DNA of 64,000 nucleotides from a phage, in the sequence record PZ452610.1; one strand, given 5' to 3'. The notes beneath the pieces are model-generated. The model was given only the letters and a program-made list of their open reading frames with translations. It was not told where the DNA came from and ran no database searches. Below, piece by piece: positions 1,679 through 42,740 of this stretch (the first letter of the stretch is position 1; every line of letters starts with the position of its first letter). Made by a program: the position numbers and the translations under genes.

Positions 1679-1876
1679 TTAGCAAGAATAACTAGATGAT
1701 ACCCAGCCTTGAACAGTGATACTATTGTGGGATAATGAGATCGCGTCCTGGAGATTCAGACCTGCGTTATCTTCAATCCATAATGTAACTTCTTCGCGTT
1801 CTTCTGTTGCAATTTGGAACAGGTTTTCCAGAGCAGCTACTGCCGTACGTACAGCACAATCTAATTCGCGAGACAT
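1679..1876 (-). CDS. small protein with conserved C-terminal GWVSSSYSC tail (family member 3)
   Basis: 65 aa; ATG at 1876 preceded by TAAGGAA; C-terminus shared with the two upstream ORFs. Confidence 0.6.
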   Translation of the reverse strand: MSRELDCAVRTAVAALENLFQIATEEREEVTLWIEDNAGLNLQDAISLSHNSITVQGWVSSSYSC

Positions 1877-1885
1877 ATTGTTTCC

Positions 1886-2158
1886 TTAGCAAGTGTGAGA
1901 AGATGCGACCCAACCACCAGTTTCGAGGCTCAGGTTGTAGTCGTATTGGTAAACGTCAGCCCATTCAGCATAACCGTTTTTTGTACAACGTTCAAGATCG
2001 GCTTTAAGATGTCCGGGTGAATGATAGGTTCCACCCATACCATAAGCTGGGTACAAGTTGAATGTTGTGTTTTGTTTATCAGCAATTTCTTTGGCAGCCT
2101 CAATAGCTGCATAGATTTTTGCTACAGCTTCAGCCAGTTCGGTTTGTTCTTTAGACAT
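1886..2158 (-). CDS. small protein with conserved C-terminal GWVASSHTC tail (family member 2)
   Basis: 90 aa; ATG at 2158 preceded by TAAGGAA; translationally coupled to neighbours. Confidence 0.6.
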   Translation of the reverse strand: MSKEQTELAEAVAKIYAAIEAAKEIADKQNTTFNLYPAYGMGGTYHSPGHLKADLERCTKNGYAEWADVYQYDYNLSLETGGWVASSHTC

Positions 2159-2167
2159 AATGATTCC

Positions 2168-2473
2168 TTAGCACAACGCAGAAGACGAAACCCAAGCACC
2201 TTCAGTAATAACGTAACCATTACCTTCACGCTTAACATCACCACCATTATTTTCAATTTCATTTTTCATCCACTGGGATACGATTTCACCCTTAGGATAA
2301 TAAGTACGACCGCTACCATAATCACCTACAGAAAATGATACGGCATATTGGTCTGCGATCTTTGTTGCTTCTTCTTCGATGCGTTCAGCTTGATTCAGAA
2401 GTTTATAAATTGCATCTGAAGCGGATTTGGCATCATTAAACTCTGGTACTTTAATTTCAATAATCTTACTCAT
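2168..2473 (-). CDS. small protein with conserved C-terminal AWVSSSALC tail (family member 1)
   Basis: 101 aa; start overlaps stop of upstream ORF (ATGA); shares GxxYxPxG and C-terminal tail with paralogs. Confidence 0.6.
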   Translation of the reverse strand: MSKIIEIKVPEFNDAKSASDAIYKLLNQAERIEEEATKIADQYAVSFSVGDYGSGRTYYPKGEIVSQWMKNEIENNGGDVKREGNGYVITEGAWVSSSALC

Positions 2474-2829
2474 TTTCTACATTCCTTAATAAAGTTTTCG
2501 ATTGTTTCATTTTCACGTTTAGCTAGGAGTTCATTATAACTAATCATTTGAGAAGCGTAAACCTTTTTATTTTTCTTGTTATGGTTTATAAAATCGTAGT
2601 AAAAATAGACTACAGTACAAAATGATGCGATGGATGCAAAGGCTTGGGTATACCGTAAGTCCTGCCATTGGTCTGTGAATCCGCCAGTGTTCCCTATAAA
2701 TCCTAACACAACGCCGTCAATAAGAAATCCAACTAATCCAAAGGCAAATCCCATGCCAATACTCATAATAAAAATTAGAATGTTCTCACCAAGAGAAGGC
2801 CATACGGTTAAGAGTTGAGGCTTTTGCAT
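2470..2829 (-). CDS. putative small membrane protein
   Basis: 119 aa with long hydrophobic stretch (IFIMSIGMGFAFGLVGFLIDGVVLGFIG). Confidence 0.55.
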   Translation of the reverse strand: MQKPQLLTVWPSLGENILIFIMSIGMGFAFGLVGFLIDGVVLGFIGNTGGFTDQWQDLRYTQAFASIASFCTVVYFYYDFINHNKKNKKVYASQMISYNELLAKRENETIENFIKECRK

Positions 2830-3023
2830 CTTATTTCCTTAACGAATTCCATAGCTTCTTCATATTCATACTTTTTAACAGCTTCATCATACTGAGCTTG
2901 GGCTTTTGCGCACTGAACTTTCCATTCTCTTAATCGGGCTCTGTGATGACGTCCTTGGTACCAATATCCCATCCAGTTAATAGGCATTAATAAAAACGGT
3001 ACAATAAGTGGTGCGACGAACAT
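2808..3023 (-). CDS. putative small membrane protein
   Basis: 71 aa, N-terminal hydrophobic helix (FVAPLIVPFLLMPINWMGYW) then charged tail; weak RBS. Confidence 0.45.
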   Translation of the reverse strand: MFVAPLIVPFLLMPINWMGYWYQGRHHRARLREWKVQCAKAQAQYDEAVKKYEYEEAMEFVKEIRCKSLNS

Positions 3024-3064
3024 TAATGAAAATGCTGCATCAGACGATATAACTTCACTAGAAT

Positions 3065-3205
3065 CTAAAACGGCTCCCCTATAATCATAAAGATTAAAAA
3101 TGCTAAAGCTAAAATAGGGCCAAATAGTACTTCATTTGGGATTAATTTACGCTTGTATTCATATGCCCAGGGCTTAATTGGCATGTACAGGGTTGGCTTT
3201 GACAT
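3065..3205 (-). CDS. possible 46-aa membrane peptide
   Basis: ATG at 3205, hydrophobic core VLFGPILALAFLIFMIIG; overlaps 3' end of ORF 3174..3770; weak RBS. Confidence 0.25.
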   Translation of the reverse strand: MSKPTLYMPIKPWAYEYKRKLIPNEVLFGPILALAFLIFMIIGEPF

Positions 3206-3770
3206 ATTCTCTACATTCCATAATAAATTGCTCAAGGATTAAATTGTTAGTGAAATTAGGACTAACAACCATAGTTTCATAAAGCGCATCAATAGCACTT
3301 AAAGCATCAACTCTTTTAAGCAAAGGCTTGCCTTCATACATAGTTTCAGAATCGACGATTAACGTAAAGTAGTATTTTTTATTATCGACTAGAACTTCTG
3401 TATCGATATAAAACATATTAGACCTCAGAAGCTTATCTCTAAAACCATAATAATCTTCAGAGCGTTCGCTAATATATTCCCATTCGGTGTTTAAACAACA
3501 AACAGACCACGTAGGAGCAACGAAATCAGTGAATCTAATATCATGGTCTACAACTAGTTTAGCAATAGCTCCGATATCATGAATCATAATACCCGGGGCT
3601 AATAAAGATTTTCGGTTATTTGCGTATTCAGTTGTCTCATAAGAAGACGACCAGTACCATTTACGCCCGGTTGCAACATATCGTAATGAATCAACTAAAG
3701 ACGTAGGTGGATTTACCTTATCTCGGAACTCTTCGAACATTGAGTCAATATCATTATTTTGGTTTCGCAT
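3174..3770 (-). CDS. hypothetical protein
   Basis: Track ORF 3174..3791 starts at TTG; preferred ATG 3770 (MRNQNND...) with AGGAG RBS directly after terminator hairpin. Confidence 0.6.
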   Translation of the reverse strand: MRNQNNDIDSMFEEFRDKVNPPTSLVDSLRYVATGRKWYWSSSYETTEYANNRKSLLAPGIMIHDIGAIAKLVVDHDIRFTDFVAPTWSVCCLNTEWEYISERSEDYYGFRDKLLRSNMFYIDTEVLVDNKKYYFTLIVDSETMYEGKPLLKRVDALSAIDALYETMVVSPNFTNNLILEQFIMECREYVKANPVHAN

Positions 3771-4735: not shown

Positions 4736-4770
4736 TGATTACTATAACATAAACTTACTTAGATGTAAAT
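4736..4770 (-). promoter_or_regulatory. early-type promoter
   Basis: minus-sense ATTTAC ... TATAGT upstream of ORF 4484..4711. Confidence 0.4.
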
Positions 4771-4923
4771 TATTTCAACGTCACCTTTAGCTGCTTTATA
4801 ACCTTCAGCCCAAGATACAACAGAGTTTTTATCTGAGGATTCAAATTCAGGCATTGGACTTTCACCAATATTCACACAGTATGTTTCTTCATTTTCATCG
4901 AACCAAATAATTAAAGTAGTCAT
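4759..4923 (-). CDS. hypothetical 54-aa protein
   Basis: ATG at 4923 (MTTLIIWFDENEETYC...) with AGGAG RBS inside the 47-bp cassette; below track length cutoff. Confidence 0.45.
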   Translation of the reverse strand: MTTLIIWFDENEETYCVNIGESPMPEFESSDKNSVVSWAEGYKAAKGDVEIIYI

Positions 4924-4963
4924 TTTGTTTACTCCTCTGTAGTTGATAAGTCTATAGTATCAC
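4917..4963 (-). repeat. 47-bp promoter/RBS/start cassette, identical copy at 41349..41395
   Basis: tagtcattttgtttactcctctgtagttgataagtctatagtatcac identical at both loci by direct comparison. Confidence 0.85.
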
Positions 4964-4991: not shown

Positions 4992-5297
4992 TTAATTTTT
5001 CCAACTTAACAACTTGTAGTGTCCTTCATTCGTACGAGGTTTATCCCAAGAAATACTAATATATGATTCGCTATCAATAGAAGTCGCCGGGTTTTTCTCT
5101 ACCGTAAGACCTTCACTTTCCAGCCATTCAATAGTATTTGCGCATAAATCTGAAGAACACCTCATCGGAAACTGGCAAGATTTTTCACCTTTAGATGCTG
5201 CATCGTACATCTTTTCTAAAATACGCTTTTGCACGTTTTTAAAAATAGTTTCAGCAGATTCTTCAGATTTTTTATTCAGTTCAGTGTAAAGACTCAT
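4992..5297 (-). CDS. hypothetical protein
   Basis: 101 aa ORF, ATG at 5297 with GAGGAAAA RBS and cassette 5316..5354 upstream. Confidence 0.55.
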   Translation of the reverse strand: MSLYTELNKKSEESAETIFKNVQKRILEKMYDAASKGEKSCQFPMRCSSDLCANTIEWLESEGLTVEKNPATSIDSESYISISWDKPRTNEGHYKLLSWKN

Positions 5298-5315
5298 AAC
5301 ATTTTCCTCTATGGT

Positions 5316-5354
5316 TGATAAGTCTATAGTATCATGTCCTTAGAAGAAGTAAAC
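5316..5354 (-). promoter_or_regulatory. early-type promoter cassette
   Basis: ttgataagtctatagtatca shared 20-mer with cassettes at 4943 and 41376; gtaaac -35 on minus. Confidence 0.45.
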
Positions 5355-6269: not shown

Positions 6270-6614
6270 TTATTTTGACATATCATCAATTTGCTCTCGA
6301 CGCCGACGCCATAGATTAATCGCTTCATTAACACATTCGGCGTTTGGTATATGACGGCAATAATATAATGATTCGCGTTTCTGGAACCGATGTTGCAATG
6401 GAATTTCGTTTAAAAGGTCTTTACGGTCAAAGTATTCAAAACCGGTTAACCCAGAACGGTTTTTAAGAAACTTCCAATGTCCGAATTAATTTTGAAAATA
6501 AACATAATCAGCATGTTGATATAACGAATTAATCAACCGGTCGGAAATAACTGTTTCACGTTCGTTAAAATAAAACGTTAAATCATGAACTACCAGATAA
6601 ACATTGCCTTTCAT
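6270..6614 (-). pseudogene. ORF interrupted by in-frame TAA (41 codons, stop at 6488..6486, then 72 sense codons)
   Basis: Same frame read through by eye: MKGNVYLVVHDLTF...YFQN*FGHWKFLKNRSG...DDMSK; second part has no ATG start. Confidence 0.45.
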
Positions 6615-39470: not shown

Positions 39471-41033
39471 ATGACTACTATCAAAACTAAAGCTCAGCTC
39501 GTAGACAAATGGAAAGAACTGCTGGAAGGTGAAGGCCTGCCGGAAATCGCTAATAGCAAGCAGGCTATTATCGCTAAAATCTTCGAAAACCAGGAAAAAG
39601 ATTTCGAAGTATCCCCTGAATATAAAGACGAGAAAATCGCTCAGGCATTTGGTTCTTTCTTGACCGAAGCTGAAATTGGTGGTGACCATGGTTATAATGC
39701 TCAGAACATCGCAGCAGGTCAAACCTCTGGTGCAGTAACCCAAATTGGGCCAGCAGTTATGGGTATGGTTCGTCGTGCTATTCCTAATCTGATCGCTTTT
39801 GATATTTGTGGTGTTCAGCCTATGAACAGCCCTACCGGTCAGGTATTTGCTCTCCGTGCAGTATATGGTAAAGACCCTATCGCTGCTGACGCTAAAGAAG
39901 CTTTCCATCCGATGTATGCTCCAGATGCGATGTTCTCTGGTCAGGGTGCTGCTAAGAAATTCCCAGCTCTGGCTGCTAGCACACAAACCACAGTAGGTGA
40001 TATCTATACTCACTTCTTCCAGGAAACTGGTACTGTATATCTGCAAGCTTCTGTTCAAGTAACAATCGATGCGACCGATGCTGCTAAATTAGATGCCGAA
40101 GTTAAGAAACAAATGGAAGCTGGTGCACTGGTAGAAATCGCTGAAGGTATGGCTACTTCTATCGCTGAACTCCAGGAAGGTTTCAACGGTTCTACCGATA
40201 ACCCATGGAATGAAATGGGCTTCCGTATCGATAAACAAGTTATTGAAGCTAAATCTCGCCAGCTGAAAGCTGCTTACTCTATCGAATTAGCACAAGACCT
40301 CCGTGCAGTACACGGTATGGATGCTGATGCTGAACTGAGCGGTATTCTGGCTACAGAAATTATGCTAGAAATCAACCGTGAAGTTGTTGATTGGATTAAC
40401 TACTCAGCACAGGTTGGTAAATCTGGTATGACCCTGACTCCGGGTTCTAAAGCTGGTGTATTTGACTTCCAGGACCCGATTGATATCCGTGGTGCTCGTT
40501 GGGCCGGTGAAAGCTTTAAATCTCTGTTGTTCCAGATTGATAAAGAAGCAGTTGAAATTGCTCGTCAAACCGGTCGTGGTGAAGGTAACTTCATTATCGC
40601 TTCCCGTAACGTAGTTAACGTACTGGCTTCAGTTGATACTGGTATTTCTTACGCTGCACAGGGTCTGGCTTCCGGTTTTAATACCGACACTACTAAGTCT
40701 GTATTTGCCGGTGTACTTGGTGGTAAATACCGCGTATACATCGACCAGTATGCTAAACAGGATTATTTCACCGTTGGTTACAAAGGCGCTAACGAAATGG
40801 ATGCAGGTATTTACTATGCTCCTTACGTTGCACTTACCCCACTGCGTGGTTCTGATCCTAAGAACTTCCAGCCGGTAATGGGCTTTAAAACTCGTTACGG
40901 TATCGGTGTTAACCCGTTTGCTGAAAGTTCCCTGCAGGCTCCAGGTGCTCGCATCCAGTCCGGTATGCCATCTATCCTGAACAGCCTTGGTAAGAACGCT
41001 TACTTCCGCCGTGTATATGTAAAAGGCATCTAA
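39471..41033 (+). CDS. 23: gp23 major capsid protein
   Basis: 520 aa; closely matches T4 gp23 as recalled (e.g. GLPEIANSKQAIIAKIFENQEKDF). Confidence 0.97.
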   Translation: MTTIKTKAQLVDKWKELLEGEGLPEIANSKQAIIAKIFENQEKDFEVSPEYKDEKIAQAFGSFLTEAEIGGDHGYNAQNIAAGQTSGAVTQIGPAVMGMVRRAIPNLIAFDICGVQPMNSPTGQVFALRAVYGKDPIAADAKEAFHPMYAPDAMFSGQGAAKKFPALAASTQTTVGDIYTHFFQETGTVYLQASVQVTIDATDAAKLDAEVKKQMEAGALVEIAEGMATSIAELQEGFNGSTDNPWNEMGFRIDKQVIEAKSRQLKAAYSIELAQDLRAVHGMDADAELSGILATEIMLEINREVVDWINYSAQVGKSGMTLTPGSKAGVFDFQDPIDIRGARWAGESFKSLLFQIDKEAVEIARQTGRGEGNFIIASRNVVNVLASVDTGISYAAQGLASGFNTDTTKSVFAGVLGGKYRVYIDQYAKQDYFTVGYKGANEMDAGIYYAPYVALTPLRGSDPKNFQPVMGFKTRYGIGVNPFAESSLQAPGARIQSGMPSILNSLGKNAYFRRVYVKGI

Positions 41034-41057
41034 TCTTAATTGATTAAATCTTATTTT

Positions 41058-41087
41058 GGGAGACTTCGGTCTCCCATTTTTGGTTTT
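41058..41087 (+). terminator. rho-independent terminator after gene 23
   Basis: GGGAGAC-ttcg-GTCTCCC followed by ATTTTTGGTTTT. Confidence 0.7.
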
Positions 41088-41355
41088 ATTTCTGTGCAAT
41101 TTTGATGTAAGTTTTCAAAATATTTTGCCAATTAGGCATACCTTCTTGGACATATGCCGGAGAACCATCTTTGTTTTTGAATGATGCAAGTTTATCAGTG
41201 GCCCAATAACCTTTAGCTCGAGCTTCAGAATCAACTTTCATCCATACTTTGTTGAAGGCATTACCATTAACTTTTGCACCATATTTTTCTACTAACTTAA
41301 CTGCTTCAGCTTCCAGAACTTTTAAAGTATCTCGTAAGAAACGTGCTTTAGTCAT
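41086..41355 (-). CDS. hypothetical protein between genes 23 and 24 (T4 segD position)
   Basis: 89 aa basic protein (MTKARFLRDT...) driven by the 47-bp cassette; no GIY-YIG motifs visible. Confidence 0.55.
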   Translation of the reverse strand: MTKARFLRDTLKVLEAEAVKLVEKYGAKVNGNAFNKVWMKVDSEARAKGYWATDKLASFKNKDGSPAYVQEGMPNWQNILKTYIKIAQK

Positions 41356-41395
41356 TTTGTTTACTCCTCTGTAGTTGATAAGTCTATAGTATCAC
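41349..41395 (-). repeat. 47-bp promoter/RBS/start cassette, identical copy at 4917..4963
   Basis: Exact identity over 47 bp including RBS AGGAG and ATG ACT. Confidence 0.85.
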
Positions 41396-41415
41396 ATACC
41401 AAATACGTTGTAAAC
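41376..41415 (-). promoter_or_regulatory. early-type promoter cassette
   Basis: ttgataagtctatagtatcac ... gtaaac (minus GTTTAC -35, TACTAT -10). Confidence 0.5.
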
Positions 41416-41421
41416 AATCTT

Positions 41422-41429
41422 TATAAATA
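41422..41429 (+). promoter_or_regulatory. late promoter TATAAATA (gene 24)
   Basis: Exact TATAAATA 28 nt upstream of gp24 ATG. Confidence 0.6.
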
Positions 41430-41456
41430 ATCTATATCACATAAGGAAAAAATGCA

Positions 41457-42740
41457 ATGAGTAAAATCCAAAAATTATTGCGTGAATCTACAACGTCTAC
41501 TAGCAACTCAATTGGTCGCCCAAATCTCGTTGCTTTGACTCGCGCTACGACTAAATTAATATATTCTGACATTGTAGCAACACAAAGAACTAATCAACCT
41601 GTTGCTGCTTTTTATGGTATCAAATATCTTAACCCAGATAACGAATTCACATTTAAAACCGGTGCTACTTATGCTGGCGAAGTTGGATATGTAGACCGAG
41701 AAAAAATTACTGAACTCACAGAAGAATCAAAAGTCACACTAAATAAAGGTGATTTTTTCAAATATAATAATATCGTCTATAAAGTGTTAGAAGATACACC
41801 ATTTGCAGATATTCAAGAAAGTGATCTAGAATTAGCTCTTCAGATTGCAGTCGTTCATTTAAAGGTACGGTTATTTTCAGATGCAGCGGTAACAAGCAAA
41901 TTTGAAAGCTCTGATAGCGAAATTTCTGATGCAAGATTCCAGATTAATAAATGGCAAACTTCAGTCAAATCTCGCAAACTTAAAACTGGTCTCACGGTTG
42001 AATTAGCGCAAGATTTGGAAGCGAATGGATTTGATGCCCCTAACTTCTTAGAGGATTTGCTTGCTACTGAAATGGCTGATGAAATTAATAAAGATATTCT
42101 TCAGTCTTTAATTACTGTATCGAAACGTTATAAAGTTACTGGAATTACTGACACCGGATTTATTGACTTGAGCTATGCATCCGCTCCAGAAGCAGGTCGT
42201 TCATTATATCGAATGGTGTGTGAAATGGTATCACACATTCAAAAAGAGACAACTTATACTGCAACGTTTTGTGTAGCCTCAGCTCGTGCAGCTGCTATTC
42301 TTGCTGCTTCCGGTTGGTTAAAACATAAGCCAGAAGATGACAAGTATCTTTCACAAAATGCTTATGGATTCTTGGCAAATGGATTACCTCTTTACTGCGA
42401 TACCAACAGTCCGTTAGATTATGTTATTGTTGGTGTTGTAGAAAATATCGGCGAAAAAGAAATTGTAGGGTCCATCTTTTATGCTCCATACACTGAAGGA
42501 GTAGATTTAGATGACCCGGAACATGTTGGTGCATTTAAAGTTGTAGTTGATCCAGAAAGCTTGCAACCGTCTATCGGATTATTGGTTAGATATGCTTTAT
42601 CAGCAAATCCTTACACAGTAGCAAAAGACGAAAAAGAAGCGAGAATAATTGATGGTGGGGACATGGATAAAATGGCAGGACGTTCAGACTTGTCTGTTTT
42701 ACTCGGTGTTAAATTGCCTAAAATTATTATAGATGAATAA
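41457..42740 (+). CDS. 24: gp24 capsid vertex protein
   Basis: 427 aa as in T4. Confidence 0.95.
   Translation: MSKIQKLLRESTTSTSNSIGRPNLVALTRATTKLIYSDIVATQRTNQPVAAFYGIKYLNPDNEFTFKTGATYAGEVGYVDREKITELTEESKVTLNKGDFFKYNNIVYKVLEDTPFADIQESDLELALQIAVVHLKVRLFSDAAVTSKFESSDSEISDARFQINKWQTSVKSRKLKTGLTVELAQDLEANGFDAPNFLEDLLATEMADEINKDILQSLITVSKRYKVTGITDTGFIDLSYASAPEAGRSLYRMVCEMVSHIQKETTYTATFCVASARAAAILAASGWLKHKPEDDKYLSQNAYGFLANGLPLYCDTNSPLDYVIVGVVENIGEKEIVGSIFYAPYTEGVDLDDPEHVGAFKVVVDPESLQPSIGLLVRYALSANPYTVAKDEKEARIIDGGDMDKMAGRSDLSVLLGVKLPKIIIDE

Follow-up and report, generated by a model that had tools for sequence, protein, structure and literature searches.

An 89-codon open reading frame (ORF) on the minus strand between the major capsid and capsid vertex genes of a T-even phage is a genuine gene, and comparison of its neighbourhood across T4-like phages indicates that it is exchanged between them as a promoter-to-terminator cassette whose allele class is out of step with the phylogeny of the adjacent gp24. 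The sequence analysed here, referred to as the window, is a 64,000-nucleotide stretch of phage DNA (record PZ452610.1) belonging to a Mosigvirus, an RB69-like T-even phage; over its segment 40900–41600 it shares 100% identity with E. coli O157 typing phages 3, 6, and 13, and 99.3–99.7% with the remaining best matches. The gene itself is already known as a long-annotated hypothetical protein in PHROG 6003, and what is new is that its allele classes are described, that it is seen to stand in tandem with segD-like genes, and that the boundaries of the swap are mapped. The features of the region are as follows.

39471–41033, plus strand: gene 23, major capsid protein, the left border of the slot
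41057–41076, plus strand: terminator of gene 23, a hairpin (z about -4 on both strands) with an 8-bp G+C-rich stem, a UUCG loop and TTTTTGGTTT directly behind it
41086–41355 (stop codon counted), minus strand: the 89-aa ORF, with an ATG start and a product beginning MTKARFLRDTLKVLEAEAVKLVEKYG, of 10.1 kDa and pI 9.8; within the PHROG 6003 family it is a class A allele
41349–41395, minus strand: 47-nt exact repeat containing the -10 box, the leader, the ribosome-binding site and the first 7 nt of the ORF, with its copy at 4917–4963
41364–41369, minus strand: ribosome-binding site GAGGAG, 8 nt upstream of the ORF ATG, read from the sequence
41386–41414, minus strand: T4-type early (sigma-70-like) promoter, with a -35 box TTTACA (41414–41409), a 17-nt spacer and a TG-extended -10 box TACTAT (41391–41386)
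41422–41429, plus strand: gene 24 late promoter TATAAATA, back-to-back with the ORF early promoter, read from the sequence and an invariant block in the alignment
41457–42740, plus strand: gene 24, capsid vertex protein, the right border of the slot

The earlier note on this DNA had placed a minus-strand ORF at 41086–41355 between the major capsid and vertex genes, and both the coordinates and the peptide proved to be exact. The product matches the phrog_6003 HMM with an E-value of 2.9e-45, residues 1–89 falling on profile positions 1–90 of 90, and this significant full-length match places it in PHROG 6003, a family of unknown function; it is the same family as the hypothetical protein of Mosigvirus and Dhakavirus, with no difference between them. 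The ORF or a homologue is found by tblastn in 240 GenBank phage records, 121 of them at an identity of at least 80% (the Mosigvirus type) and 119 at less than 60%, and the match is unbroken over at least 80% of its length in all but two (238 of 240). Where it has been annotated it is a hypothetical protein, and named family entries include YP_009592782 of O157 typing phage 3, orf173 of JS98, and RB69ORF188c and RB69ORF189c. The description of the ORF as novel is thus not sustained, given a family of this breadth, its own PHROG, and fragments in the RB69 record. Carriers include the BASEL phages AlbertHofmann and ChristianSchoenbein and many phage-therapy isolates. In the searchable literature there is no mention of RB69ORF188c/189c, phrog_6003, or the JS98 locus tag, and the sole text match is to unrelated ORF188c names in other phages.

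Some copies are broken or oddly recorded. In the RB69 reference record (NC_004928) the gene is split by a +1 and a -1 indel into RB69ORF188c and RB69ORF189c, and at 6292–6532 of the corresponding locus (L007) the indels are accompanied by a short run of mismatches between the two fragments; this could be a real pseudogenisation in the laboratory strain, or could reflect sequence errors made in 2003. In phage mogra the ORF is present as a 51-aa fragment. One 90-aa family member (P0006, contig ena:ERZ27245996:k123_278436) bears the JGI-source name 'NADPH-dependent curcumin reductase CurA', evidently a mis-annotation, and a 160-aa entry (P0021) consists of a class B fragment fused to an unrelated protein and looks like a chimeric assembly.

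Within a class the ORF is under purifying selection. The dN/dS ratio is 0.09–0.10 at a dS of ~0.4 for JS98 compared with F2 or ATK48, and 0.13–0.14 for more distant within-class pairs, the full range of 0.09–0.14 covering pairs in which dS is unsaturated. Because the phrog_6003 match is full-length, several T4-like lineages have homologues in this slot, and dN/dS is low, we regard the ORF as a real gene and not a chance reading frame. Its GC content (34.8%) and GC3 (23%) are the same as those of the phage, and recent foreign acquisition is not supported, given this phage-typical composition.

The junction of genes 23 and 24 was surveyed across T4-like phages by tblastn with a fused gp23 plus gp24 query, which gives the span between the two genes, in records sampled evenly down the ranking. 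An empty gap (~90 nt) is found in T2 and in many Tequatrovirus, and likewise in those T4-likes of Salmonella (KM16, Melville), Klebsiella (KpV477), and Proteus that were sampled. A gap of ~425 nt containing the 89-aa ORF alone is seen in Mosigvirus and Dhakavirus, and JS98 has orf173 in the same slot and the same orientation, between genes 23 and 24a; the ORF appears to be a long-term syntenic resident of the position and not a recent insertion. Homing endonucleases are present in the gap in T4, Yersinia phage phiR1-RT, and several Klebsiella and Cronobacter T4-likes such as GAP161, with T4 carrying segD alone, on the minus strand. In ATK48 (a Mosigvirus) and F2 (a Tequatrovirus) we read directly the order early promoter, ORF, segD-like gene, hairpin; the segD-like gene encodes 219 aa and starts 3 nt past the ORF stop, so that the two lie in tandem behind one early promoter. 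A homing endonuclease also adjoins the ORF match, by annotation, in JM10 and the LF82-x phages, and the endonuclease of the F2/ATK48 type, which is about 58% identical to T4 SegD, is found at an identity of at least 80% in 38 records. In Acinetobacter phage MD-2021a (OV298649, locus L009) the slot is occupied by a further uncharacterised cargo, a 475-aa ORF at 1796–3223 on the minus strand, which is unrelated to the 89-aa ORF and has no Pfam match.

With empty, ORF, ORF plus endonuclease, and endonuclease states all represented, the survey supports the suggestion made previously that this junction is an insertion hotspot, and the 23/24 gap is a polymorphic slot. The accompanying proposal, that the ORF occupies the place where T4 carries segD, holds as far as position is concerned; T4 segD lies in the same gap and on the minus strand, and shares a homologous promoter block and terminator hairpin, but it is a free-standing GIY-YIG homing endonuclease whose protein is unrelated to the ORF product. 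As a statement that one replaces the other it does not hold, because a class B ORF and a segD-like gene stand in tandem in ATK48 and F2; the ORF and segD are thus not mutually exclusive, and the ORF is not simply an alternative to segD.

In T4-like phages the family falls into two deeply diverged classes that are about 27–39% identical to each other, with the following members.

Class A: the window, P0004, P0005, P0006
Class B: JS98, F2, ATK48, P0016

The distribution of these classes is out of step with the gp24 phylogeny. The gp24 of the window is 99–100% identical to those of F2 and ATK48, whereas the ORF products are only 32% identical, and JS98 and the P0006 contig likewise have gp24 proteins that are 94% identical and ORF products that are 30% identical. 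The converse is seen with JS98 and F2, in which the ORF products are 93% identical and the gp24 proteins 70%. When the window is compared with ATK48 in 60-nt windows, identity is mostly 95–100% until the final codons of gene 23 and regains that level at the promoter -10/leader. Relative to both ATK48 and F2, all of the sequence between the end of gene 23 and the promoter -10/leader has been replaced, inside flanks of 98–100% identity. These boundaries show exchange of the gene between phages as a cassette extending from promoter to terminator. Because both the promoter block and the hairpin are conserved in the window, JS98, and T4, they are likely to be the substrates for recombination. Within gene 23 itself there is a 6-nt indel and a local dip in identity at 40051–40105 relative to ATK48, F2, and T4, the gene 23 product being 520 aa in the window and about 522 aa in those three phages; a small patch of mosaicism within the capsid gene could account for this.

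The finding of class B together with the endonuclease in both Mosigvirus and Tequatrovirus backgrounds is consistent with co-conversion by homing. Flanking markers are reportedly co-converted by Seg endonucleases, and T4 SegD is said not to have driven homing of its own gene. Exchange modules bounded by endonucleases have been described in phages (Barth et al. 2023, PMC10448857), and the locus described here resembles them in that the ORF class tracks the neighbouring endonuclease and not the capsid-gene phylogeny, and in that the replaced tract ends cleanly in the flanks. An ORF moving in this manner might be a passenger or selfish cargo of little benefit to the phage, persisting between essential genes in a cassette prone to recombination and hitch-hiking with the segD-like endonuclease. 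The tandem arrangement in ATK48 and F2, the annotated adjacency in JM10 and the LF82-x phages, and the 38 endonuclease records are all in keeping with this, as are the pairing of class B with the endonuclease in two genera, which co-conversion predicts, and the lack of the gene in many phages. However, dN/dS values of ~0.1 and conservation of fold and motif across classes A and B and a third class (C, below) point to selection acting on the protein, an adjacent endonuclease is lacking in roughly 200 of the 240 carriers (240 minus the 38 endonuclease records), and homologues in unrelated phages have no endonuclease annotated or called nearby. Cargo status is therefore improbable, and we favour, tentatively, an intact accessory gene that is maintained for its product.

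The signals upstream of the ORF suggest early expression. The promoter fits the PeSL consensus TTTACW-N17-TAYWAT published for the PST/T4 pair (PMC4122927), which is present six times in the window compared with 0.21 expected, all six on the minus strand. A 20-mer spanning the -10 box and leader, TGATACTATAGACYTATCAA, is present in four copies where none (0) is expected, the -10/leader core of the 47-nt stretch being found also at 5315–5334 and 339–358. The earlier note had recognised a mobile promoter cassette with the ORF, and the consensus match, its over-representation, and the 47-nt exact repeat all bear this out. The promoter block is common to the window, JS98, F2, T4, and three metagenomic T4-likes. 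The second 47-nt copy lies upstream of an unrelated 54-aa ORF (MTTLIIWFDENEETYCVN...; 4759–4923, minus strand) and includes its first codons (ATGACTA), and the small minus-strand ORFs at 4992–5297 and 112–333 share the -10/leader core with the 89-aa ORF. A shared early promoter and leader of this type could lead to recombination between distant loci.

PeSLs are mobile regulatory cassettes of T4-type phages (Arbiol et al. 2010, PMC2839356; Comeau et al. 2014, PMC4122927), and the window promoter is similar to them in matching the consensus, in being repeated in the genome, in lying at a gene-replacement boundary, and in adjoining an ORFan. The canonical arrangement is a stem-loop terminator followed by an early promoter, whereas the window promoter has no upstream stem-loop, the gene 24 late promoter being located there, and the hairpin is at the opposite (3') end of the ORF, where it doubles as the gene 23 terminator. 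The ORF cassette thus has the promoter consensus and the repeated, boundary-associated character of a PeSL, and does not have the composite of stem-loop and promoter. In T4 (NC_000866, locus L004) the sequence at 2734–2823, upstream of segD, aligns with the early-promoter block as ATTTAC-N17/18-TG-n-TATTAT and adjoins the gene 24 TATAAATA. No segD-specific promoter could be identified, according to the review of Edgell et al. (2010, PMC2988022). T4 may keep a weakened version of the cassette early promoter upstream of segD, with a G to A change in the -35 box.

These signals also bear on whether the product is a capsid-assembly or capsid-associated accessory protein, as its position between genes 23 and 24 might suggest, and for which there is a weak, non-significant PHROG match to an 'internal virion protein' family (E = 0.13). 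The ORF and the late capsid operon are on different strands, and the ORF has an early-type promoter and not a late one, with the only TATAAATA in the gap facing gene 24; moreover, it is missing in many phages with near-identical gp23 and gp24, and its homologues elsewhere are in arrays of small early-type genes and not in head modules. A role in the capsid is thus very improbable.

The hairpin at 41057–41076 is flanked by the stop codons of gene 23 and the ORF, is conserved in T4 and JS98, and is assigned as the gene 23 terminator because the T-run is on the plus strand only. A terminator is located after gene 23 in all six T4-like genomes compared by Nolan et al. (2006, PMC1524935). The earlier note had described terminators on both sides of the ORF, but we find one hairpin only: the spacer between the ORF and gene 24 (41356–41456) has no significant structure (z = -0.4 and -0.1), and an Rfam scan of the gap gave no match near threshold. 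On the minus strand (41034–41085) the ORF transcript runs into the hairpin with no U-run behind it. Because the hairpin is not followed by a U-run in this direction, early transcription that starts at the ORF promoter may continue past it and give RNA antisense to gene 23. Early 'anti-late' RNA is a classical observation in T4.

The 89-aa protein is predicted by AlphaFold2 to form a compact single domain with an alpha-alpha-beta-hairpin-alpha arrangement (pLDDT 91). Comparison of this model with solved structures gave no match, either enzyme-like or otherwise specific, and searches of Pfam, NCBIfam, PADLOC, and PDB sequences returned nothing informative, the only Pfam hit being a sub-threshold DUF4859. 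The cargo had been described as uncharacterised, and this remains an apt description in that remote homology searches with Pfam, NCBIfam, a HMMER profile, and hhalign against SegD yielded no function. There is no match in PADLOC, which covers defence proteins only, and no likeness in fold or sequence to characterised anti-defence proteins with solved structures; nor does the peptide turn up in the supplementary data of two accessory-gene screens and of one machine-learning study predicting anti-defence proteins.

The earlier note would have been refuted by the ORF being a degenerate or truncated remnant of a known seg or mob homing endonuclease. There is a likeness over 17–25 residues between the C-terminus of the ORF product, GSPAYVQEGMPNWQNIL, and the linker of SegD, GNPVIVHLQDPSYRNML; BLASTP against T4 SegD aligns 17 residues with an E-value of only 0.022 in a single pairwise comparison, and hhalign assigns the family a probability of 0.8% when it is set against SegD and of 1.2% against a SegD-family alignment. 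Pfam finds no GIY-YIG, HNH, or NUMOD domain, confirming that GIY-YIG and HNH motifs are absent as reported previously, and there is no match to a Mob-type HNH motif or domain in Pfam, NCBIfam, or PHROG. A Pfam negative alone is not strong, as the ATK48 endonuclease used as a control scores 20.3 bits with SegE_GIY-YIG compared to a cut-off of 25, and the SegD profile comparisons outweigh it because this control is itself sub-threshold. At 89 aa the product is also well short of SegD-like endonucleases, which are about 200–250 aa in length and include a C-terminal DNA-binding region. ATK48 and F2 each carry an intact ORF as well as a segD-like gene of full length, and the predicted structure is that of a compact, independent fold. 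The remnant reading is ruled out by the Pfam, BLASTP, and hhalign results and can be considered effectively refuted, and the protein is presumably a small domain in its own right.

Beyond the T4-like phages the family is sparse. An exhaustive search of 1.84 billion representatives with a HMMER profile returned 10 matches at E ≤ 0.001, of which about seven are small proteins of phage type or pieces of such proteins, two are long, rich in repeats and to all appearance spurious, and one is the apparently chimeric 160-aa entry; no bacterial homologue family emerged from this search, and no plasmid homologues, such as leading-region anti-restriction genes, were found. Members of a further class, C, are about 34–40% identical to the window protein and are present in Acinetobacter phage ABPH49 (Vequintavirinae, 150 kb) and in related myophage-like contigs of 36–141 kb, where they are located within long arrays of small co-directional ORFs with few or no Pfam matches. 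One class C homologue follows the tail genes of a siphophage-like contig that is a distant relative of 42-kb Serratia siphophages. Residues K3, F6, G31, N32, N35, and Q70 are invariant across classes A, B, and C, and L11, L14, L21, N30, A45, S57, G64, and I79 are nearly so.

We infer from these features a role as a binder, perhaps in counter-defence, and our preferred, although still tentative, interpretation is that an intact and selectively maintained accessory gene in a swappable cassette encodes an early protein that binds a host factor or a defence component. Host RNA polymerase would transcribe the ORF right after infection, antisense to the late capsid genes, and the strong ribosome-binding site would direct synthesis of a soluble, basic protein of 10 kDa that is compactly folded as helix-helix-beta-hairpin-helix and lacks any catalytic motif. 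Such a protein would act by stoichiometric binding and not by catalysis, presumably through a family-invariant polar patch formed by the N30-G31-N32 loop at the start of helix 2, N35, and Q70. Its target would be a host component, probably a strain-specific anti-phage defence or an object of host takeover. The protein is dispensable for the core lytic cycle, because nothing fills the slot in T2, in many Tequatrovirus, or in phages of other genera, and because the gene is frameshifted in RB69 and reduced to a fragment in mogra. The sporadic distribution among virulent phages, the exchange of cassettes, and the presence of class C in arrays of small ORFs all count in favour of an accessory role.

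The lack of any likeness to characterised anti-defence or host-takeover proteins counts against this interpretation. The basic pI counts against a host-protein binder to the extent that it is equally compatible with nucleic-acid binding, and a small basic nucleic-acid-binding protein, whether it regulates transcription or translation in phage or host or is associated with DNA, has to be considered. Isoelectric points across four family members range from 8.0 to 9.8, with three of the four clearly basic, and the window protein (pI 9.8) has 17 Lys plus Arg residues and 9 Asp plus Glu. It is also small and helix-rich in the AlphaFold2 model, and phosphates could be contacted by its conserved Gly/Asn loop, which lies where a helix begins. 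We nonetheless think nucleic-acid binding unlikely to be its function, and an early binder of host or defence components remains the interpretation that we prefer. A more ambitious version of that interpretation, offered as a rather doubtful proposal, is that PHROG 6003 represents a new type of early counter-defence or host-takeover effector with a new small fold, which would engage a host protein or a nucleotide-derived immune signal via the Asn-Gly-Asn loop and Gln70; classes A, B, and C would then differ in target specificity and be swapped as cassettes, sometimes carried along by a segD-like endonuclease.

As it stands, the ORF is an ordinary, already-annotated ORFan of the RB69-like phages, and plastic loci of this kind are known. 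What is useful here is a clean case of modular exchange in nature, in which two ORF allele classes of 32–36% identity lie in flanks that are 99–100% identical and the boundaries fall on regulatory elements. If the product does prove to be a counter-defence factor, the locus would show homing endonucleases spreading host-range alleles among therapeutic T-even phages.
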